Under the pieces are notes generated by a model, which saw only the letters and a program-made list of their open reading frames with translations, had not been told where the DNA came from and made no database searches. From NCBI RefSeq assembly GCF_048403405.1, contig NZ_CP183129.1: a stretch of DNA of 64,000 nt; one strand, written 5' to 3'. Positions within the stretch are counted from its first letter, which is position 1, and each line of letters opens with the position of its first letter. A program made the position numbers and the translations under genes. Positions 36,357 through 59,777 of this stretch are shown here, piece by piece. The DNA comes from Escherichia coli. GTDB lineage: Bacteria; Pseudomonadota; Gammaproteobacteria; Enterobacterales; Enterobacteriaceae.

Positions 36357-37247
36357 ATGGATGCAAAACAAACGCGGCAGGGCGTATTACTCGCTCTTGC
36401 CGCTTATTTTATTTGGGGTATTGCGCCAGCGTACTTCAAGCTAATTTACTACGTGCCCGCCGATGAGATCCTGACGCATCGCGTGATCTGGTCGTTTTTC
36501 TTTATGGTGGTGCTGATGAGCATCTGCCGCCAGTGGTCCTATTTAAAAACGCTGATTCAGACGCCACAGAAAATTTTTATGCTGGCAGTCTCTGCCGTGC
36601 TGATTGGTGGCAACTGGCTACTGTTTATCTGGGCGGTGAACAATCACCATATGCTGGAAGCGAGCCTTGGTTACTTTATTAACCCGCTGGTGAACATTGT
36701 GCTAGGGATGATTTTCCTCGGCGAGCGATTCCGCCGGATGCAATGGCTGGCGGTGATTCTGGCGATATGTGGCGTGTTGGTTCAGTTGTGGACTTTTGGT
36801 TCACTACCGATTATCGCGCTGGGGCTGGCGTTTAGTTTTGCCTTCTACGGCCTGGTACGCAAGAAGATTGCTGTTGAAGCGCAAACCGGCATGTTAATCG
36901 AAACTATGTGGTTGCTGCCCGTGGCGGCGATTTACCTGTTTGCTATTGCCGACAGCGCAACCAGCCATATGGGGCAAAACCCGATGTCACTGAATTTACT
37001 GCTGATCGCCGCCGGGATTGTCACTACCGTACCGCTGTTGTGTTTTACTGCGGCTGCGACACGCCTGCGTCTCTCAACGTTAGGCTTTTTTCAGTACATT
37101 GGCCCGACGCTGATGTTCCTGCTGGCTGTGACGTTTTATGGTGAAAAACCGGGTGCCGATAAGATGGTGACCTTCGCCTTTATTTGGGTGGCGCTGGCAA
37201 TTTTTGTGATGGATGCGATTTATACGCAGCGTAGAACGTCCAAATAA
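36357..37247 (+). CDS. rarD: EamA/DMT-family transporter RarD
   Basis: 296-aa 10-TM membrane protein following yigI. Confidence 0.9.
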   Translation: MDAKQTRQGVLLALAAYFIWGIAPAYFKLIYYVPADEILTHRVIWSFFFMVVLMSICRQWSYLKTLIQTPQKIFMLAVSAVLIGGNWLLFIWAVNNHHMLEASLGYFINPLVNIVLGMIFLGERFRRMQWLAVILAICGVLVQLWTFGSLPIIALGLAFSFAFYGLVRKKIAVEAQTGMLIETMWLLPVAAIYLFAIADSATSHMGQNPMSLNLLLIAAGIVTTVPLLCFTAAATRLRLSTLGFFQYIGPTLMFLLAVTFYGEKPGADKMVTFAFIWVALAIFVMDAIYTQRRTSK

Positions 37248-37557
37248 AAAATAAATATATTCTGAAAAAATATGCCGACTCTTGCATGAGAGTGGGCATA
37301 TTGCCATGCTGACAGGAGACTCACATAAGGAAAGGCAGAATTTCCAGACGTCGTTGTATATTTTCATTTGCTTTAATAAATTTCATTTTTAGTAAATTCA
37401 GCATTATGTTATTAGCGATGAGCAAGACCAATCATTAACCAAGTTCTCTTCAGAATGTAATGAAAAATGTGAAGTGCATTTCTTTTTTAAAATTTTTTTA
37501 GCCTATTATTTCTTATCAAATTAACATTGCCCTTAATTATAAGAAAGGAGAATATAA

Positions 37558-38406
37558 ATGAACAACATATTAGGCTCATCAATTAATATGCCCTGTACAC
37601 TTTTCGAAACTATTACTTTATTCGATGATTTTTCTGCTGATGATATGCAATATGGGGATATGGAAGAACAAGATTTTCTCTCACTCGGCTTAAGCGACAT
37701 CTCTGCAAAAGTTGATCCTTACCGCCTCATTAAATACCATTTTCCTGGGCCGAATTCTACTTATGGTGCTTTTAGTGTTCCAACTTCTGGAACAAAAATA
37801 TCACAAAGTGAATGTATTGATATTTTATTTGCAGAAATGAAAGATCTGGCAAAAATGTTTTCCTTTTTTGGACAATACAAAACACTCATCCAGGATCTGA
37901 TTGATCATTTTAGATATGGAAATGGCAACAGTTTCCATAGCCAGGAATTGAACTTATCTTTTCATGAACGAATAAAAAAATATGATTATAATAGCCCAAT
38001 ACGTGTAATCAAAGAATGTATCGAAAATGATATTTCTTCAACACCTACGATAGGATACCGGCCTCTTCTCCTACAAAAGATTAAGATCGAATTACTTTCA
38101 TCAAGACTAAATAAATTCAATGATTTTAAAGATAATTTTAATGGCCTGGGAATCAGCATTCATGATATCTCAGCTCAAAAAATATCTCTTTTAAGTTTTC
38201 AAAAATACGCTATAGGATGGAGTGCAACAATTCATTTTGTAGCACAGGACCACTTCGGTCTTGATGTAACTGATATCAAAAACAAGACTTACAGCAAATA
38301 TAGATTTTTTCGCATATGGTTCTTTTTACAACGGCATAAAGACTTTGCTTTCAAACCTTTTTTCACCAATTTTAACACTATCGAAAGAATCGAAAATTAT
38401 CTATGA
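37558..38406 (+). CDS. Hypothetical cytoplasmic protein, 282 aa, in a low-GC two-gene module (possibly DUF3289-like; unverified)
   Basis: Clean ORF with AAGGAGA SD (37545-37551), acidic N-terminus, no signal peptide. Strongly AT-rich codon usage unlike the flanking rarD/corA. Confidence 0.6.
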   Translation: MNNILGSSINMPCTLFETITLFDDFSADDMQYGDMEEQDFLSLGLSDISAKVDPYRLIKYHFPGPNSTYGAFSVPTSGTKISQSECIDILFAEMKDLAKMFSFFGQYKTLIQDLIDHFRYGNGNSFHSQELNLSFHERIKKYDYNSPIRVIKECIENDISSTPTIGYRPLLLQKIKIELLSSRLNKFNDFKDNFNGLGISIHDISAQKISLLSFQKYAIGWSATIHFVAQDHFGLDVTDIKNKTYSKYRFFRIWFFLQRHKDFAFKPFFTNFNTIERIENYL

Positions 38407-38894
38407 AAAACAAACTCCAGAAAATTATATTATGTTTATTTCTTCTATGCTGCATCTATAATTTATGGACATTGCGTCCTGTACAGATTTTGTATACATA
38501 CTCTGATGCTGGCAATTCAGTCTTTCTGGTCGTTGATCATCTGCCATGGACTGACAGCGATAAAATAAATTGGTATCTGAAGCATCAGAATGAAATTAAA
38601 AATCAACATCCCCTACCAGAAGGTAGTTGGCATACCTGGTATGTCATTGATATCGGTAATGGCTTCACTGACTATAAAAAATATATCGAAGGGCCGTATG
38701 AAGATCTCTACTGTTTCCCGACAATTAAGAGCAATGATAATTGCATCGTGAAAAATTACTTAATGGTTATTAATGAATACCCTTATCGTAACACTCATAT
38801 TGGTATTAACGATTTTACTGAGTATCAATTAACACAAGAAAATAAAATAGAGCGAGTTTTCAATCCGCATGACTTTAAAAAAGACAATTTTTAG
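38403..38894 (+). CDS. Hypothetical membrane-anchored protein, 163 aa, translationally coupled to the upstream gene (possibly DUF943-like; unverified)
   Basis: Start overlaps the upstream stop (ATGA at 38403-38406). N-terminal hydrophobic segment IILCLFLLCCIYNLW, then a soluble domain. Same AT-rich composition. Confidence 0.6.
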   Translation: MKNKLQKIILCLFLLCCIYNLWTLRPVQILYTYSDAGNSVFLVVDHLPWTDSDKINWYLKHQNEIKNQHPLPEGSWHTWYVIDIGNGFTDYKKYIEGPYEDLYCFPTIKSNDNCIVKNYLMVINEYPYRNTHIGINDFTEYQLTQENKIERVFNPHDFKKDNF

Positions 38895-38935
38895 AAATAA
38901 GCCGGATAAAAAAATAGCTTTATCCGGCACTCATA

Positions 38936-39886
38936 TTACAACCAGTTCTTCCGCTTAAAATACAGATACGGTGCCAGGCCCGCGAGGATCATAAAGATAA
39001 TCGCGCCAGGGTAGCCGAAACTCCACTTCAGTTCCGGCATAAACTCAAAGTTCATCCCGTAGCTGGAAGCAACCAGCGTTGGCGGCAGGAACACGACGGA
39101 TACCACCGAGAAGATTTTGATGATGCGGTTCTGCTCGATGTTGATAAAGCCCATCGCCGCCTGCATCAGGAAGTTCACCTTCTGGAACAGGGATTCGTTA
39201 TGCGGCAGCAGGGATTCGATATCTCGCAGGATTTCACGCGCCTGCTCCAGTTGACCACCCGGTAAACGCGCCTTGCGTACCAGGAAGTTGAGCGCACGCT
39301 GGGTATCCATCAGACACAGGCGAACTTTCCAGCCGATATCTTCCAGTTCCGCCAGCGTGGAGAGCGCCTCGTCGTACTCATCGCCCTGATGCCCTTCCAT
39401 AATTACCCGGCTCAACTGCTCCAGGTCGCTGTAGATATTTTCAATTTCATCTGCCAACTGTTCGATTTTGGTTTCGAACAGATCCAGCAGCAGCTCGTAG
39501 GCATTACCGTCTACCATCGACTGGCTACGGGCACGCATACGATATAGACGAAAAGCGGGCAGTTCACGCTCACGCAGAGTAAACAGACGACCATCACGGA
39601 TGGTAAATGCCACAGTGGAGTTACCGGCGTGATCTTCCGCATCTTCAAAGAAGAAGAAGGAGTGAATATGCAGGCCGTCATCGTCTTCAAAGAAACGTGC
39701 CGATGCTTCGATGTCTTCCAGTTCCGGGCGGGTTGCCAGGCTCTGGCCAAGTTCAGATTGTACGCGCAGTCGCTCGTCGTCGTCCGGTTCGACAAGATCA
39801 ATCCATACTGCATTTACAAGGGGTTGTGACTCTTCGACTTCCAGCCGGGTCAGTCGGTTATTTTCCAGTTGAAATGCGCTCAGCAT
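38936..39886 (-). CDS. corA: Magnesium/cobalt transporter CorA
   Basis: ORF open to 39901; canonical 316-aa start [15 protein letters not shown]; C-terminal TM helices with the YGMNF motif. Confidence 0.95.
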
Positions 39887-51045: not shown

Positions 51046-51431
51046 GACGTATCGCCTGATTTGCTACCCGTCATGACTGTGATTCCGCCAACATCAACGG
51101 TAACACGCGGCATTCGGGATATTTCGTATGTCAAAGGTAACCGTTACCACTTTTCGCGCCTGGTTTTTTTAGTTTCACGACGAAAAAATGGTCTAAAACG
51201 TGATCAATTTAACACCTTGCTGATTGACCGTAAAGAAAGATGCGCTACATACAAGTGTAGCACCGTTTATTCTCTGTAAATTCCTTATTACGACGGCGTG
51301 AAACGCCTGTCAGGATCCACTGCCAGACCTCATTTTACGGTTTGCGCAGGCGTCTACGTTTCACCACAACACTGACATCGCTCTGGCAAGGATGTTAGGA
51401 TGGACCACGGATGATAATGACGGTAACAAGC

Positions 51432-53131: not shown

Positions 53132-54325
53132 ATGACGGAACAAGAAAAAACCTCCGCCGTGGTTGAAGAGACCAGGGAGGCCGTGGACACCACGTCACAA
53201 CCTGTCGCAACAGAAAAAAAGAGTAAGAACAATACCGCATTGATTCTCAGCGCGGTGGCTATTGCTATTGCTCTGGCGGCGGGCGTCGGTTTGTATGGCT
53301 GGGGTAAACAACAGGCCGTCAATCAGACTGCCACCAGCGATGCCCTGGCTAATCAACTGACGGCACTGCAAAAAGCCCAGGAGAGCCAAAAAGCTGAGCT
53401 GGAAGGCATTATCAAGCAACAAGCTGTACAGCTTGAGCAGGCGAATCGTCAGCAAGAAACGCTGGCAAAACAGTTGGATGAAGTCCAACAAAAGGTCGCC
53501 ACCATTTCCGGCAGCGATGCTAAAACCTGGCTGCTGGCTCAGGCCGATTTTCTGGTGAAACTCGCAGGACGGAAGCTGTGGAGCGATCAAGACGTCACGA
53601 CCGCTGCAGCGTTGCTGAAAAGTGCAGATGCCAGCCTGGCGGATATGAATGACCCGAGTCTGATTACCGTTCGTCGGGCAATTACCGATGATATCGCCAG
53701 CCTTTCTGCGGTATCGCAGGTGGATTATGACGGCATCATCCTTAAGCTTAATCAGCTTTCAAATCAGGTAGATAACCTGCGTCTGGCCGATAATGACAGC
53801 GATGGTTCGCCGATGGATTCCGACGGTGAAGAGCTTTCCAGTTCCATCAGCGAATGGCGTATCAATCTACAAAAAAGCTGGCAGAATTTTATGGACAACT
53901 TCATTACGATTCGCCGTCGTGATGACACCGCCGTACCGCTGTTAGCGCCAAATCAGGATATCTATCTGCGCGAAAATATTCGCTCTCGCCTGCTGGTCGC
54001 AGCACAAGCTGTACCGCGTCACCAGCAAGAGACTTATCGCCAGGCGCTGGAGAACGTCTCCACCTGGGTACGTGCTTACTACGATACTGATGATGCCACC
54101 ACCAAAGCGTTCCTCGACGAGGTGGACCAGTTAAGCCAGCAAAATATCTCGATGGATCTTCCGGAAACCCTGCAAAGCCAGGCGATGCTGGAAAAACTGA
54201 TGCAGACTCGCGTGCGTAACCTGCTGGCACAACCGGCAGCGGGGACAACGGAAGCTAAACCTGCACCTGCACCTGCACCTGCACCGCAAGCTGATACTCC
54301 GGCAGCCGCGCCGCAAGGAGAATAA
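53132..54325 (+). CDS. hemX: HemX (uroporphyrinogen-III methyltransferase-like membrane protein)
   Basis: 397-aa ORF with N-terminal TM helix, coiled-coil-rich body and Pro/Ala-rich C-terminal tail. Confidence 0.9.
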
Positions 54326-54327
54326 CC

Positions 54328-55524
54328 ATGCTAAAAGTGTTATTGCTCTTTGTTTTGCTGATTGCGGGGATAGTGGTTGGCCCGATGATTGCCGGTCATC
54401 AGGGTTACGTGCTGATCCAGACCGACAACTACAATATCGAAACCAGCGTCACTGGCCTGGCGATTATTTTGATTCTGGCGATGGTAGTGCTGTTTGCCAT
54501 TGAGTGGCTACTGCGGCGGATCTTCCGCACAGGCGCACACACCCGTGGGTGGTTTGTCGGACGTAAGCGTCGCCGTGCCCGTAAGCAGACCGAGCAGGCG
54601 CTGCTGAAACTAGCGGAAGGCGATTATCAGCAAGTTGAAAAGCTGATGGCGAAAAATGCCGATCACGCTGAACAACCGGTGGTGAACTATCTACTGGCTG
54701 CCGAAGCCGCGCAACAACGTGGTGATGAAGCACGCGCCAACCAACATCTGGAACGTGCAGCGGAGCTGGCCGGCAACGACACCATTCCGGTAGAAATCAC
54801 CCGTGTACGTCTTCAACTGGCCCGTAATGAAAACCATGCTGCACGCCACGGCGTGGATAAGCTGCTGGAAGTTACGCCACGCCATCCGGAAGTATTACGT
54901 CTGGCGGAACAGGCGTATATCCGCACAGGTGCATGGAGTTCGCTGCTGGATATCATCCCATCAATGGCGAAAGCCCACGTTGGCGATGAAGAACATCGTG
55001 CAATGCTGGAACAACAGGCATGGATTGGCCTGATGGATCAGGCGCGCGCCGATGACGGTAGCGAAGGTTTGCGAAACTGGTGGAAAAACCAAAGCCGGAA
55101 AACGCGTCATCAGGTGGCGTTACAGGTGGCAATGGCGGAACATCTTATTGAATGTGACGATCATGATACTGCTCAGCAAATTATCATCGACGGCCTGAAA
55201 CGCCAGTATGATGATCGTCTGCTGCTGCCGATCCCGCGTCTGAAAACCAATAACCCGGAACAGCTGGAAAAAGTGCTACGCCAGCAAATCAAAAACGTCG
55301 GTGATCGCCCGCTGTTGTGGAGCACATTGGGTCAGTCACTGATGAAGCACGGTGAATGGCAGGAAGCATCGCTCGCCTTCCGCGCGGCGCTGAAACAACG
55401 TCCGGACGCCTACGATTACGCATGGCTCGCCGACGCGCTGGACAGACTGCACAAACCAGAAGAAGCTGCAGCGATGCGCCGCGACGGTTTGATGTTAACG
55501 TTGCAGAACAACCCGCCACAGTAG
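54328..55524 (+). CDS. hemY: HemY (TPR-containing membrane protein)
   Basis: 398-aa ORF with two N-terminal TM segments followed by TPR-like repeats; last gene of hemCDXY. Confidence 0.9.
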   Translation: MLKVLLLFVLLIAGIVVGPMIAGHQGYVLIQTDNYNIETSVTGLAIILILAMVVLFAIEWLLRRIFRTGAHTRGWFVGRKRRRARKQTEQALLKLAEGDYQQVEKLMAKNADHAEQPVVNYLLAAEAAQQRGDEARANQHLERAAELAGNDTIPVEITRVRLQLARNENHAARHGVDKLLEVTPRHPEVLRLAEQAYIRTGAWSSLLDIIPSMAKAHVGDEEHRAMLEQQAWIGLMDQARADDGSEGLRNWWKNQSRKTRHQVALQVAMAEHLIECDDHDTAQQIIIDGLKRQYDDRLLLPIPRLKTNNPEQLEKVLRQQIKNVGDRPLLWSTLGQSLMKHGEWQEASLAFRAALKQRPDAYDYAWLADALDRLHKPEEAAAMRRDGLMLTLQNNPPQ

Positions 55525-55571: not shown

Positions 55572-55777
55572 AAAAAAACGCCTGCTCTTATTACGGAGCA
55601 GGCGTTAAAACAGGTCTGTATGACAACAAGTGGGTGCTTCACTCAACGTTGTGTCCATGGTGTCTGATGAGGCATAAGCGACATCTGTCAGTGGACGATA
55701 AGCACCGTAAACGGCTCTGCGTCATTCCGGAGTTTATGAGGCACTAAGGCGAACATAAGAGATGGAATGAGCATCTA
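55572..55777 (-). ncRNA. glmZ: GlmZ small regulatory RNA (activator of glmS translation), including its own terminator
   Basis: The reverse complement of 55572-55777 reads GTAGATGCTCATTCCATCTCTTATGTTCGCC ... ACAGACCTGTTTTAACGCCTGCTCCGTAATAAGAGCAGGCGTTTTTTT, which matches GlmZ as I remember it, in the expected hemY-aslA intergenic position and ending in a hairpin plus U-tract. Confidence 0.8.
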
Positions 55778-56202
55778 CTCGTTTATTATGCCACAGAGAA
55801 CCGGGAAATAACATCCCTTAACACTTTTTATGAGATAATTCTGTAATCCTCTTTGCTTCCTGAGTAATAACTTCCTGAGTGAATATTTCTCCTGCGCACG
55901 ATTCTACACATATATATAATGAATAATAAAAGTCATTCAATTAATAACATATATATTAATTGCCGTTAAAACTAAAAACAGCATCAATAATCAACGCGAT
56001 ATAACATCACCGCCTTACATATCACCTGCGCCAGAGGTAGGATTGAAAACGCTCTCCTGATTTTCCAATTCATTATCTGGATAAATAAATAATTTATTTT
56101 CATCACTATTATTTATGCAATCATCCTGTCAGGGAGAGGGATCTCAATTATCAATGCTTAATTACGTCAACATTTTGACGACATGAAACCGGAGCATTTT
56201 GC

Positions 56203-57858
56203 ATGGAATTTTCGTTTTCACCCAAACTTCTTGTTGTGGCTGTCGCCGCCGCTCTTCCACTCATGGCCAACGCAGCAGATACCCCGTCAACCGCCACCGC
56301 ACGCAAAGGCTTTGCCGGATACGATCACCCAAACCAGTATCTGGTTAAACCGGCGACCACTATTGCCGACAACATGATGCCGGTGATGCAGCATCCTGCA
56401 CAAGACAAAGAAACCCAGCAGAAGCTGGCAGAACTTGAGAAAAAAACCGGTAAGAAACCGAACGTGGTTGTTTTCTTGCTGGATGATGTGGGCTGGATGG
56501 ATGTTGGCTTTAACGGCGGCGGCGTGGCGGTGGGTAATCCTACACCAGATATCGACGCCGTTGCCAGCCAGGGGCTGATTTTAACTTCGGCGTATTCTCA
56601 ACCGAGTTCTTCCCCAACCCGCGCCACGATTCTTACCGGACAATACTCCATCCACCACGGCATTCTGATGCCGCCAATGTACGGGCAACCGGGCGGTCTG
56701 CAAGGGTTAACCACTCTGCCGCAGTTGCTGCACGATCAGGGCTACGTCACTCAGGCCATCGGGAAATGGCATATGGGGGAAAACAAAGAGTCGCAGCCGC
56801 AGAACGTTGGCTTTGATGATTTCCGCGGCTTTAACTCGGTATCCGATATGTATACCGAATGGCGTGATGTTCACGTCAACCCGGAAGTCGCCCTGAGCCC
56901 GGATCGTTCTGAATACATCCAAAAACTGCCGTTCAGCAAAGATGACGTTCATGCCGTGCGCGGCGGTGAACAGGAAGCCATTGCCGACATTACGCCGAAA
57001 TATATGGAAGACCTGGATCAACGCTGGATGGAATATGGCGTTAAGTTCCTCGACAAGATGGCGAAGAGCGATAAGCCTTTCTTCCTCTACTACGGCACTC
57101 GCGGCTGTCACTTCGATAACTACCCAAATGCGAAATATGCGGGTAGCTCTCCGGCGCGCACCTCTTACGGCGACTGCATGGTGGAGATGAACGATATCTT
57201 CGCCAATCTGTATAAAGCACTGGAGAAAAACGGTCAGCTTGATAACACGCTGATTGTGTTCACCTCTGATAACGGTCCGGAAGCCGAAGTTCCGCCACAC
57301 GGTCGCACGCCGTTCCGCGGTGCGAAAGGTTCTACATGGGAAGGCGGCGTTCGTGTGCCAACCTTCGTTTACTGGAAAGGCATGATCCAACCGCGTAAAT
57401 CTGACGGCATTGTCGATCTGGCGGATCTCTTCCCTACGGCGCTGGATCTGGCGGGGCATCCTGGGGCGAAAGTAGCGAATTTAGTACCGAAAACCACCTT
57501 TATCGATGGTGTGGACCAGACATCTTTCTTCCTGGGAACAAATGGTCAGTCTAACCGTAAGGCCGAGCACTACTTCCTCAACGGTAAACTTTCTGCTGTG
57601 CGTATGGATGAGTTCAAGTATCACGTCCTGATCCAGCAACCGTACGCGTATACCCAGAGCGGGTATCAGGGTGGATTCACCGGCACAGTAATGCAAACGG
57701 CGGGATCGTCGGTGTTTAACCTGTACACCGATCCGCAGGAAAGCGACTCCATCGGCGTGCGCCATATCCCAATGGGTGTACCGCTACAGACCGAAATGCA
57801 CGCGTATATGGAGATCCTGAAAAAATATCCACCACGCGCGCAGATTAAATCTGATTAA
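56203..57858 (+). CDS. aslA: Arylsulfatase-family protein AslA (periplasmic)
   Basis: 551-aa ORF with signal peptide ([26 protein letters not shown]) and sulfatase fold; the active-site motif reads [12 protein letters not shown] (Ser-type). Confidence 0.9.
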
Positions 57859-57894
57859 GCCGGCGCTATCGCTACATCGGGCCACACTGACCTT

Positions 57895-57924
57895 GCCGGA
57901 TGCGACGTGAACGCCTTATCCGGC
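57895..57924. repeat. REP element between aslA and aslB
   Basis: GCCGGATGCGACGTGAACGCCTTATCCGGC, the typical REP consensus. Confidence 0.5.
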
Positions 57925-57936
57925 AATTAACCGCAG

Positions 57937-57962
57937 GCGGCCACAAAATGGCCGCTTTTTTA
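57937..57962. terminator. Bidirectional rho-independent terminator between convergent aslA and aslB
   Basis: GCGGCC-ACAAAAT-GGCCGC hairpin flanked by an A-tract upstream and TTTTTT downstream. Confidence 0.55.
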
Positions 57963-59195
57963 CTTATTCACCACCATCAAATGCGCCTGCATAATGTCGC
58001 TGGCCGGACGACCGTGCGCCAGCAAATCAGCCATTGCTTTAAGATATGGCGGTAGATGGCGGAAATAACGCTGATACCCGGCACACAAATAATTCAGCCC
58101 GGGTTTGCCGCTGGCATCGAGCATAAAGCGGTGTTTCGGACAGCCTCCCCAGCACGCTTTTAACACGTTGCAACTGCGACACTGCGCCGGTAACTGCTTA
58201 AATTTATCTTCACCAAACACCTGCTGTTGCGGGGAATCTACCATTTCTGCAATTGTTTGCTGGTGCATATTCCCCAGTCGATATTGCGGATAAACATAGT
58301 GATCGCAGGCGTAAACGTCGCCGTTGTGTTCAACAATCACCGAGCGCCCACAGGTTGGCTGATGATGGCAAACCGCACCTGGCGCACCAACAAAATTGGC
58401 AAACGCCCATTCGATATTCATCACGAAAATCTTGCCGACGTCGCGTTTGATCCAGTGGTCGAATATCGCCACCAAAAATTCACCGAACTCATCGGGGCGT
58501 ACCGACCATTCCGTCAGTTCGCCCTGAATATCGCCGGGAGCATGTAGCTTAAGTCCAGCATGAGCAGCCGTTTCATCAGCCAGGCGCTCGACCACCGGAA
58601 TAAACTGGATGAACTCAGCGCCTGCATCACACAGAAAATCATAGACTTGCAAAGGTTGTAACGCACTGGTGCGATTAACGCAGACCAGCACGTTATAGTC
58701 GACATGATGTTTTTGCAGGAGCGTCAGGGCACGCATCACCAGCTTATGCGTTGGTCTGCCGCCTTTGGTCACGCGATATTGATTGTGGATCTCAGCCGGA
58801 CCATCCAGCGATAACCCTACAAGAAAATGATTTTCTGCCAGAAATGCACACCATTCGTCATCAAGCAGAACGCCGTTAGTCTGGAAGCTGTTACTTATCT
58901 TCCTGCCAGCACCATATTTCGCCTGTAGCGCCACGGCACGGCGGTAAAAATCCAGCCCGAGTAACGTTGGTTCGCCGCCCTGCCAGGTAAAAGCCACTTC
59001 GTTTTGGGTTTCGCTGGCAGCGATATAGTGACGGACATACGCTTCCAGCGTGTCATCGTCCATATGCGTGACTGGCTTTTCGCGGTAAAGGGATTGTTTT
59101 TCGAGATAAAAACAGTAGTCACAGTTCAGATTACAATCGGAACCGCTCGGTTTCGCCATCACATGAAAAGCACGCGTTGGAACCTGTTGCAGCAT
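57960..59195 (-). CDS. aslB: Anaerobic sulfatase-maturating enzyme homolog AslB (radical SAM)
   Basis: ORF open to 59225; canonical start MLQQVPTRAFHVMAKPSGSDCNLNCDYCFY with the radical-SAM CxxxCxxC motif and additional C-terminal Cys clusters. Confidence 0.9.
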   Translation of the reverse strand: MLQQVPTRAFHVMAKPSGSDCNLNCDYCFYLEKQSLYREKPVTHMDDDTLEAYVRHYIAASETQNEVAFTWQGGEPTLLGLDFYRRAVALQAKYGAGRKISNSFQTNGVLLDDEWCAFLAENHFLVGLSLDGPAEIHNQYRVTKGGRPTHKLVMRALTLLQKHHVDYNVLVCVNRTSALQPLQVYDFLCDAGAEFIQFIPVVERLADETAAHAGLKLHAPGDIQGELTEWSVRPDEFGEFLVAIFDHWIKRDVGKIFVMNIEWAFANFVGAPGAVCHHQPTCGRSVIVEHNGDVYACDHYVYPQYRLGNMHQQTIAEMVDSPQQQVFGEDKFKQLPAQCRSCNVLKACWGGCPKHRFMLDASGKPGLNYLCAGYQRYFRHLPPYLKAMADLLAHGRPASDIMQAHLMVVNK

Positions 59196-59341
59196 GGTCG
59201 CTCCTTGCCTGAAGTCATCCTTCAATAAGTTAAGGGCGAAATCATACCGTGGCGCAATGAGTTATTACGGGCGTTTATTGCGAAGGGAAAGAGACGAAAT
59301 GCACAGAAAACAAAAAACCCCGCCGAAGCGGGGTTCAAAAT

Positions 59342-59418
59342 TGGTCGGCGAGAGAGGATTCGAACCTCCGACCCACTGGTCCCAAACCAGTTGCGCTACC
59401 AAGCTGCGCTACTCGCCG
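59342..59418 (-). tRNA. proM: tRNA-Pro (anticodon TGG)
   Basis: Reverse complement reads CGGCGAGTAGCGCAGCTTGGTAGCGCAACTGGTTTGGGACCAGTGGGTCGGAGGTTCGAATCCTCTCTCGCCGACCA; cloverleaf with a TGG anticodon loop. Confidence 0.9.
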
Positions 59419-59460
59419 AAATACTGCTTTTTGAATTTTTAGTTCAATTCTTTAAAGTCG

Positions 59461-59546
59461 TGGTGCGAGGGGGGGACTTGAACCCCCACGTCCGTAAGGA
59501 CACTAACACCTGAAGCTAGCGCGTCTACCAATTCCGCCACCTTCGC
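59461..59546 (-). tRNA. leuT: tRNA-Leu (anticodon CAG), long variable arm
   Basis: Reverse complement reads GCGAAGGTGGCGGAATTGGTAGACGCGCTAGCTTCAGGTGTTAGTGTCCTTACGGACGTGGGGGTTCAAGTCCCCCCCTCGCACCA. Confidence 0.9.
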
Positions 59547-59566
59547 ATTGTCACAACTTCTAATAA

Positions 59567-59642
59567 TGGGGTGGCTAATGGGATTCGAACCCACGACAAC
59601 TGGAATCACAATCCAGGGCTCTACCAACTGAGCTATAGCCAC
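59567..59642 (-). tRNA. hisR: tRNA-His (anticodon GTG)
   Basis: Reverse complement reads GTGGCTATAGCTCAGTTGGTAGAGCCCTGGATTGTGATTCCAGTTGTCGTGGGTTCGAATCCCATTAGCCACCCCA. Confidence 0.9.
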
Positions 59643-59700
59643 CACTACAAATCTTGTTACGCGGTATTACTACCACCGCAGCTCAAGCGCCGGGACTAAA

Positions 59701-59777
<77 letters not shown>

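Follow-up and report, generated by a model that had tools for sequence, protein, structure and literature searches.

In this work, we asked what the strongly AT-rich DNA in front of the arylsulfatase gene aslA does in Escherichia coli, and to which of its neighbouring genes it belongs. The window, i.e., the whole stretch of 64,000 nucleotides that was analysed, is collinear in gene order with K-12 MG1655, and the AT-rich DNA lies among the following features.

54328-55524, plus strand: hemY, the left neighbour of glmZ in the gene order
55572-55778, minus strand: glmZ (SraJ/RyiA) small RNA gene (Rfam RF00083; K-12 annotation b4456; terminator scan)
55577-55606, minus strand: intrinsic terminator of glmZ (terminator scan)
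55779-55818, minus strand: sigma-70 core promoter of glmZ, -1 to -40 (K-12 dissection, PMC3045617; window alignment)
55779-56202: divergent spacer of 424 bp between glmZ and aslA
55820-56202: AT-rich remainder of the spacer (its body), with a G+C content of about 30-34%, not needed for glmZ, left edge of the aslA/aslB segment
56203-57858, plus strand: aslA, ATG at 56203, intrinsic terminator at 57935-57957 (terminator scan)
57960-59195, minus strand: aslB, convergent with aslA (TIGR03942, PF04055, PF13186)
59345-59777, minus strand: proM-leuT-hisR-argX tRNA operon, followed by thrP (yifK)

Layout and composition of the glmZ-aslA spacer

The first-pass annotation had described this DNA as the upstream region of aslA. 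The tract does lie directly upstream of aslA, but the description was incomplete, since the left border is the minus-strand gene glmZ, which had been overlooked. This makes the tract a spacer between two divergent genes rather than the upstream region of aslA alone. GlmZ was recognised by Rfam over its full length 1-214 on the minus strand (RF00083, 218.4 bits, E = 2.9e-57); the gene is 100% identical to K-12 glmZ, and its transcription start lies at 55778. The extreme AT-richness that had been pointed out over some 400 bp before aslA was borne out by the numbers. The G+C content of 55800-56200 is 33.2% as against 51.5% for the whole 64-kb window, a value equalled by only 1.4% of the 400-bp windows, with similar values at three other loci in the 64 kb. 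A+T exceeds the genome average by a wide margin across several hundred bp (33.2-33.7% G+C), and both A/T strings quoted by the first-pass annotation were found, at 55910-55933 and 56083-56104. The tract is a real, ordinary AT-rich promoter region that has essentially been described already. Published experiments have taken apart the glmZ side of the tract, and a genome-wide SELEX survey has flagged the side of aslA.

The segment 55500-56260 is 100% identical to that of E. coli strain CFSAN061763, and among 5,426 complete E. coli genomes it was found over almost its whole length in 5,413; the glmZ-aslA tract is a core-genome feature of the species. The K-12 MG1655 aslA-glmZ intergenic region (U00096.3 3,986,008-3,986,431) is the same locus as the window spacer. 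The two spacers are collinear and 93.9% identical, with no indels and 26 substitutions, which cluster at 55879-55928 and 55979-56028. The flanking genes are 94-96% identical to those of K-12, and the window strain represents another E. coli lineage. Because the locus is the same and collinear, the published K-12 work on the glmZ promoter and the RpoD and H-NS SELEX data carry over directly.

AslA, AslB and their transcription units

AslA carries an S1 sulfatase domain (PF00884, 240 bits), and its closest solved relative is PDB 7aj0 (E = 8e-101). The motif SSPTR, which had been read as a Ser-type active site, is found at residues 136-140 (nt 56608-56622) and is identical in K-12. S136 aligns with the formylglycine Cys of the solved sulfatases (C-T-S-S-R of 7aj0, residue 69 of human ARSA), which upholds that reading. 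By these matches, AslA is classified as a periplasmic Ser-type formylglycine-dependent sulfatase, with a signal peptide by inspection of the translation. The claim of an adjacent AslB-type maturase also stands. AslB, whose gene adjoins aslA, scores 517.7 bits against the anaerobic sulfatase maturase equivalog TIGR03942 (cut-off 349.45) and matches PF04055 and PF13186, which classifies it as a radical-SAM/SPASM anaerobic sulfatase maturase (anSME). The sulfatase domain, the Ser position and a nearby maturase gene, by which a Ser-type sulfatase with its anSME is recognised, are thus all present. Ser-type sulfatases are known to be matured only by anSME-type enzymes, as in the work on Klebsiella AtsA/AtsB. 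The K-12 annotation lists both aslA and aslB as 'putative', and a literature search on the Ser-type pair found no paper on AslB-dependent maturation or AslA activity. In E. coli K1, AslA ranks among the virulence factors.

The terminator scan placed a terminator on each side of aslB, at 57935-57957 and at 59315-59336 (the proM terminator). Because aslB is convergent with aslA and terminated on each side, it forms its own transcription unit and is not co-transcribed with aslA. For the same reason, the AT-rich tract can control aslA only, and the adjacency of aslB is not to be read as co-regulation with aslA.

Constraint within the spacer and a candidate aslA promoter

Constraint was expressed as the fraction of variable alignment columns among five Escherichia lineages. 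The fractions, with the elements of the aslA side, are listed below.

aslA third codon positions: fraction 0.51
Spacer overall: fraction 0.40
55804-55828, -35 region of glmZ: fraction 0.12
55854-55928, hypervariable sub-tract with indels: fraction 0.68-0.79; 10 of 50 mismatches against K-12
55979-56003, constrained block: fraction 0.28
56014-56043, plus strand: candidate aslA promoter CTTACA-18 nt-TAGGAT, weak with 8/12 matches, prediction only
56029-56053, constrained block flanking the candidate promoter: fraction 0.20
56129-56202, plus strand: conserved aslA leader, fraction 0.16-0.24
56165-56180, plus strand: leader hairpin CGTCAA-CATT-TTGACG
56191-56194, plus strand: aslA Shine-Dalgarno sequence GGAG

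It follows from these fractions that the spacer is a mosaic of constrained and unconstrained parts. As a whole it diverges from K-12 by 6.1%, compared with 11.5-15.4% at the third positions of the flanking genes. By the alignment, the aslA-proximal half holds blocks under purifying selection, and the sub-tract 55854-55928 probably has no sequence-specific function. The element CTTACA-18-TAGGAT is the sole plus-strand promoter-like element whose hexamers and spacing are invariant in the five Escherichia lineages; in Pseudocitrobacter, too, both hexamers are found 18 nt apart, with a different sequence between them. We propose that it is the aslA promoter, presumably a weak and activator-dependent one, with a predicted start near 56050 and a leader of about 150 nt. 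Two other candidates, the promoter TTAACA-18-TGTAAT predicted by Shimada (55818-55847) and the extended -10 element TGAGATAAT (55831-55839), were rejected, as neither is conserved among the Escherichia lineages. In the accessible part of the exponential-phase start-site survey of Kim 2012, a glmZ start is present and an aslA start absent, which counts as weak evidence for the control-region reading given below. The leader hairpin is upheld by one change on both sides, one G-U pair and a register shift (RNAalifold), and the stability of the folded leader RNA is nothing out of the ordinary (z = -0.64). The Shine-Dalgarno region of aslA has a potential pairing partner in AAUGCUU (56153-56159).

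The AT-rich tract travels with aslB-aslA

A GlmZ-specific pattern scan of one genome per species yielded 95 enterobacterial glmZ loci, to which two Raoultella loci were added by hand. The usual order in most of them is thrP, tRNA operon, short spacer, glmZ and hemY. In most aslA-less loci, some 150-800 bp separate glmZ from the tRNA operon upstream, and this DNA holds two to three GlrR sites (TGTCN10GACA) near -150, -214 and -246 together with a sigma-54 promoter, TGGCAC-N5-GTGCA. The pair aslB-aslA lies between the tRNAs and glmZ in four genera only, i.e., Escherichia, Pseudocitrobacter, Kluyvera genomosp. 1 and Superficieibacter; within Escherichia, the pair was found there in the window, in K-12, in E. 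albertii and in two more lineages of species rank that bear the label E. coli. All six aslA-adjacent loci (6/6) have a spacer of 400-500 bp with 30-34% G+C and carry neither a GlrR site nor a -24 box. When the G+C content of -400..-50 was compared at the 84 loci for which 400 nt or more of upstream DNA were available, the remaining comparably low values came from Providencia, Proteus and Moellerella, whose whole genomes are AT-rich. Among the 95 loci and the two from Raoultella, a tract so AT-rich relative to its genome was found only where aslB-aslA adjoins glmZ.

The homology between E. coli and the genera lacking aslA at this place reaches upstream of glmZ only to about -42, and is picked up again directly past the proM terminator. 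On this comparison, the AT-rich body marks the edge of a lineage-specific segment of about 3.5 kb (about 55820-59300) with aslA and aslB; an association of the tract with lineage-specific or laterally acquired DNA is thus found. As judged from the alignments, the segment occupies the place of the ancestral GlrR/sigma-54 enhancer of glmZ. The tract belongs to aslA and not to glmZ, because it occurs only beside aslB-aslA, where it replaces the glmZ enhancer. That the tract and aslB-aslA sit where other Enterobacterales keep this enhancer is the modestly new point of the analysis, and it gives a simple account of the missing GlrR control of Escherichia glmZ, whose enhancer site has been taken by aslB-aslA. 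Raoultella has no aslB-aslA, its tRNAs lie at -192 and its spacer is GC-normal, yet it carries the E. coli-type variant of the -42..+1 glmZ promoter. Because of this variant, the insertion may have come first, the enhancer may have been lost before it, or the cassette may have been lost again secondarily. We tentatively suggest, with more doubt than confidence, that the aslB-aslA cassette, with the tract as its leading edge, came to lie between the proM terminator and glmZ in at least four enterobacterial genera and displaced the GlrR(QseF)/sigma-54/IHF enhancer, so that lateral gene acquisition uncoupled the conserved sRNA GlmZ of Escherichia from the two-component system QseE/QseF, and that the conserved blocks and hairpin of the tract mark a specific induction signal of aslA.

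H-NS and expression of aslA

We consider it fairly probable that the tract is a glmZ-aslA divergent control region in which the body represents a weak aslA promoter and leader under H-NS occupancy. In the proposed mechanism, the body would carry the promoter CTTACA-18-TAGGAT and its leader of about 150 nt, and H-NS, probably with other AT-binding nucleoid proteins, would occupy the body. The occupancy would hold aslA low in laboratory conditions until a signal or an activator relieves it, and aslB would be under separate control. Such occupancy is proposed because the body has about 67% A+T and TpA-rich steps, and not because of curvature. Lineage-specific segments are a classic substrate of H-NS.

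Genomic SELEX with K-12 marked the aslA<>glmZ spacer for both H-NS and the sigma-70 holoenzyme in its main Table 1 (Shimada et al. 2014, PMC3946193). In the machine-read version of Table S2 of the same work, the HNS cell is empty for this spacer, so the published SELEX evidence for H-NS is internally inconsistent. Two features of the spacer bear on nucleation.

56078-56087: match to the H-NS nucleation motif, TGGATAAATA, 8/10, the only one in the spacer, preceding the ATAAATAAATAATTTATTTT run
56081-56100: longest pure A/T run, ATAAATAAATAATTTATTTT, within the feature 56078-56100

With this single 8/10 match, the nucleation motif (tCGATAAATT-like) shows no clear enrichment in the spacer. Across the window, TCGATAAATT gave 82 matches as against 63 +/- 9 in shuffles, a borderline excess, and the spacer match is uninformative. 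aslA is missing from the supplementary lists of Higashi 2016 and Myers 2013, and neither in-vivo H-NS ChIP data for aslA nor a report on its expression in an hns mutant was found in the literature searched. The tract is short for an H-NS target (about 400 bp) and is bordered by the constitutively active promoter of glmZ. Repression by short patches of H-NS is weaker, with an altered expression in hns mutants for no more than about 40% of the genes that they target (PMC3064808). In E. coli K1, the mRNA of aslA could be measured and responded to rpoE and LL-37 (PMC9147696). aslA is thus not completely silent; this indirect RpoE/LL-37 effect in K1 was the only information on aslA regulation found in the literature. 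Taken together, it is rather probable that H-NS occupies the tract in vivo. That H-NS is the main cause of low aslA expression is possible, with our judgement leaning somewhat against it. Occupancy of the weak aslA promoter by H-NS is the likeliest mechanism, although unproven.

The alternative that survives best is that the tract is a neutral compositional relic, i.e., the unameliorated edge of an insert or a product of mutation bias in an unconstrained spacer, in which case aslA would be weakly expressed merely on account of a poor promoter and H-NS would have no meaningful role. The segment is indeed lineage-specific, its part 55854-55928 evolves faster than third codon positions and with indels, the sole conserved promoter-like element is weak (8/12 matches), and the evidence for H-NS is thin and internally inconsistent. 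On the other hand, several blocks of the spacer are clearly constrained. The genes aslA and aslB themselves have 50-58% G+C, so the segment shows no general compositional foreignness. Moreover, the sequences of the aslA-adjacent spacers are largely unalignable between genera despite their constant 30-34% G+C, and this persistence of AT-richness across four genera without sequence conservation argues for selection on composition. We therefore regard a neutral relic as unlikely, and retain the control region with a weak, H-NS-occupied aslA promoter as the preferred reading.

Curvature and A-tract phasing

A second alternative is that phased A-tracts bend the DNA upstream of aslA, and that the bend recruits H-NS or modulates RNA polymerase. 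The spacer contains A/T-only runs of 8-20 bp, and curved DNA is a known target of H-NS (PMC3946193). The first-pass annotation had described the A/T tracts as phased, which the tests do not support. The spacer has nine A4+/T4+ tracts as compared with 6.7 +/- 2.3 in composition-matched shuffles, and two A5+ tracts where composition predicts 2.2; the AA/TT periodicity test of the spacer gave no excess of power at periods of 10-11 bp. Curvature was calculated with the Bolshoy-Trifonov wedge model, with wedge parameters that are reportedly those of Bolshoy et al. from 1991, so that the result is model-based; the controls behaved as they should, phased A6 tracts coming out at 140 degrees and unphased tracts at 2. 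In this model, the mean curvature of the spacer is 22.9 degrees per 63 bp, compared with 24.9 for the window mean, and its maximum is 36 degrees as against 58 +/- 12 for shuffles. Its end-to-end ratio is 0.94 compared with 0.82 +/- 0.11 for its own shuffles, and it is straighter than 97% of the composition-matched shuffles. The earlier description of the DNA as curved thus fails these tests, as the model gives average curvature for the window and a spacer straighter than its shuffles. The A/T runs are rich in TpA (ATATATATAAT, TAATAA) and are for that reason expected to be flexible rather than bent. Curvature is not predicted to be a part of the picture, and AT-richness here does not imply a bend; we consider a role for intrinsic curvature quite improbable, and the preferred reading remains H-NS occupancy of a weak aslA promoter on account of A+T content and TpA steps.

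The glmZ promoter and its upstream DNA

A third alternative assigns the AT-rich DNA to glmZ, as an activating region (an enhancer, IHF-dependent or UP-like) of the kind found in Salmonella and Yersinia. In most Enterobacterales, the DNA about 250 bp upstream of glmZ carries GlrR and IHF sites, and the sigma-70 holoenzyme SELEX peak of the spacer is among the strongest of the genome, with 0.98 relative to the strongest genomic peak and a position at 3,984,454 (PMC3946193, Table S1). We take this position to be given in U00096.2 numbering; with the offset of 1,977 bp, it then falls within one base of the transcription start of glmZ, and the strong RNA polymerase peak would reflect the glmZ promoter.

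In K-12, glmZ is transcribed constitutively from one sigma-70 promoter only (Goepel et al. 2011, PMC3045617). In the same work, 5' deletions of the aslA-glmZ spacer showed that only -40..+1 is required, activity staying intact after deletion to -40 and the DNA further upstream being dispensable, and mutations of the -35 and -10 elements abolished expression. GlrR failed to bind the K-12 fragment -424..+32, and glrR and rpoN mutations were without effect (PMC3045617). The window differs from K-12 by one substitution in the 40 bp of -40..+1, at -23, and with its adjacent start and this match it falls into the E. coli type of sigma-70 glmZ promoter (group III of Goepel). On the minus strand, we read an extended -10 element TGG-CATAAT (55793-55785) and a weak -35 element ATGTTA (55814-55809). 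An alignment with other genera indicates that remnants of the ancestral sigma-54 -24/-12 element persist in the core promoter in decayed form. The -24 box of the window gene is CCCGGT and its GG-to-GC spacing is one base short, so it does not have the -24/-12 promoter TGGCAC-N5-(T/G)TGCA. No TGTCN10GACA site for GlrR was found in 55779-56202 even at up to two mismatches, nor any IHF core match in the spacer; control elements for GlrR, IHF or sigma-54 in the spacer were rejected, since the scans found none. A sigma-70 consensus scan of the spacer gave two sites compared with 2.1 +/- 1.3 in shuffles, and the real glmZ promoter was not among them. An activating role of the AT-rich DNA for glmZ is already largely refuted and is very improbable. 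That the spacer conceals an unannotated gene for a small protein or a further sRNA is more improbable still and was rejected, since its two 40-codon minus-strand ORFs (55818-55940 and 55984-56106), although one overlaps a conserved block, are broken or shift their start or frame among the Escherichia lineages (in L026 the better one contains TGA and TAG), Rfam at E <= 10 matches the spacer only with chance eukaryotic families, and the K-12 annotation is empty there.

Beyond the correct annotation of the locus, the importance of these results is small. The aslA locus is used as a neutral insertion site in the literature, and glmZ and its promoter at the edge of the tract must be considered in any engineering of the aslA locus or any hns-related interpretation. 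The regulation of aslA, if worked out, would bear on the switching-on of a Ser-type sulfatase implicated in K1 invasion.

Comparison with known systems

The K-12 MG1655 locus is the closest counterpart, with an identical glmZ and a -40..+1 promoter one base apart. The 'promoter islands' of the Ozoline laboratory are likewise AT-rich, bind RNA polymerase strongly in vitro and adjoin a poorly expressed acquired gene. Unlike them, the spacer has no excess of promoter-like sites (2 vs 2.1 in shuffles), and its strong RNA polymerase peak is accounted for by the genuine glmZ promoter. The spacer is not among the published islands either (PMC3661553 and supplements), and membership was rejected on the missing listing and the missing excess.

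In Klebsiella pneumoniae, atsB and atsA form one operon that is regulated by sulfur supply and tyramine. As with aslA/aslB, a Ser-type periplasmic sulfatase is paired there with an anSME gene, whereas aslA and aslB run towards each other and have terminators of their own. The GlrR(QseF)/sigma-54/IHF regions of glmZ and glmY in Salmonella, Yersinia and most Enterobacterales share with the tract their position relative to glmZ, and those of glmZ also the -12/-10 block (TGTGCAATAAT-like). In contrast to them, the spacer has no -24 box, none of the three GlrR sites and no IHF sites, and its sequence upstream of about -42 is unrelated.

The xenogeneic-silencing regions, i.e., the H-NS-bound promoters of laterally acquired genes such as proU, bgl and hilA, differ from the tract in several respects: the tract extends over no more than about 400 bp, the genes downstream of it are GC-normal, curvature is not predicted, the nucleation motif has a single 8/10 match and a constitutively active promoter stands at its edge. 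On the other hand, the tract likewise lies about 18 percentage points under the genome G+C, edges a lineage-specific segment beside a tRNA operon, and precedes a gene that is expressed little or not at all in the laboratory; in K-12, it has an in-vitro H-NS SELEX flag in the main Table 1, but none in the machine-read Table S2 (PMC3946193).

AT-rich regions and predicted curvature in the window

In the published binding data of PMC3946193, an H-NS site is marked in main Table 1 for the K-12 spacer between aslA and glmZ, the counterpart of the AT-rich spacer at 55779-56202; in the machine-read version of Table S2 the HNS cell for this spacer is empty, and the neighbouring row, yifB<>ilvL, carries the H-NS mark in both tables. 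An FNR ChIP peak at 3,984,609 was labelled 5' of glmZ/hemY, with its regulatory consequence given as unknown (Myers et al. 2013 supplementary tables, PMC3688515). If this position follows the older U00096.2 numbering, the peak falls at about 55624 in the window, inside glmZ and outside the AT-rich spacer.

A second AT-rich tract of 1.7 kb was observed at 37240-38960, with 24-33% G+C in 200-bp windows, and it exceeds the aslA spacer in both length and AT extremity. Its counterpart in strain CFSAN061763 holds two strain-variable genes flanked by rarD and corA, one encoding a member of the YPO3983 family and the other a member of the DUF943 family. For classic H-NS silencing, which the first-pass annotation had proposed for the aslA spacer, the rarD-corA tract is the better candidate.

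The highest intrinsic curvature of the entire window was predicted by the wedge model in the divergent region between cyaA and hemC (about 51100-51280; 41-44% G+C), reaching 105 degrees per 63 bp, roughly fourfold the mean over the window.

The aslA leader RNA

Two elements were recognized in the aslA leader (56153-56198 region):

56165-56180, hairpin CGTCAA-CATT-TTGACG
56153-56159, AAUGCUU, complement of the Shine-Dalgarno region GAGCAUU at 56192-56198

The hairpin is kept across Escherichia: both sides have changed in E. albertii, pairing is retained through a G-U pair in locus L091, and between the window and K-12 the register is shifted with pairing preserved. The fold energy of the leader showed nothing unusual (z = -0.64).

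Length of hemX

The hemX ORF (53132-54325) has 397 codons, compared with 393 in K-12 (1,182 bp). A Pro-Ala repeat (APAPAPAPQ...) closes the reading frame, and the difference is probably due to variation in the length of this repeat.

The glmZ promoter and enhancer in other genera

One of the compared loci, a 279-bp contig of low coverage (1.5x) from the Bacillales assembly of Alkalicoccobacillus porphyridii, contains an E. coli-type glmZ promoter and the glmZ start, and almost certainly represents E. coli DNA that contaminated this assembly.

In Raoultella (L070, L076; glmZ -200 to +5 compared), aslB-aslA is absent, and 192 bp lie between glmZ and the end of the upstream tRNA operon. The glmZ segment from -42 to +1 nevertheless carries the same sigma-70-type promoter variant as E. 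coli, ATG..ATTTCC.CGG...CTGTG..ATAATAAACG. The GlrR sites are likewise missing from a Citrobacter subgroup (L013, L033, L051, L052, L096, L117), in which the tRNAs lie at about -149 to -183 relative to glmZ. Because the E. coli-type promoter occurs in Raoultella without aslB-aslA, and the GlrR sites are also missing from this Citrobacter subgroup, the sequence comparison indicates that loss of the glmZ enhancer has followed more than one route.
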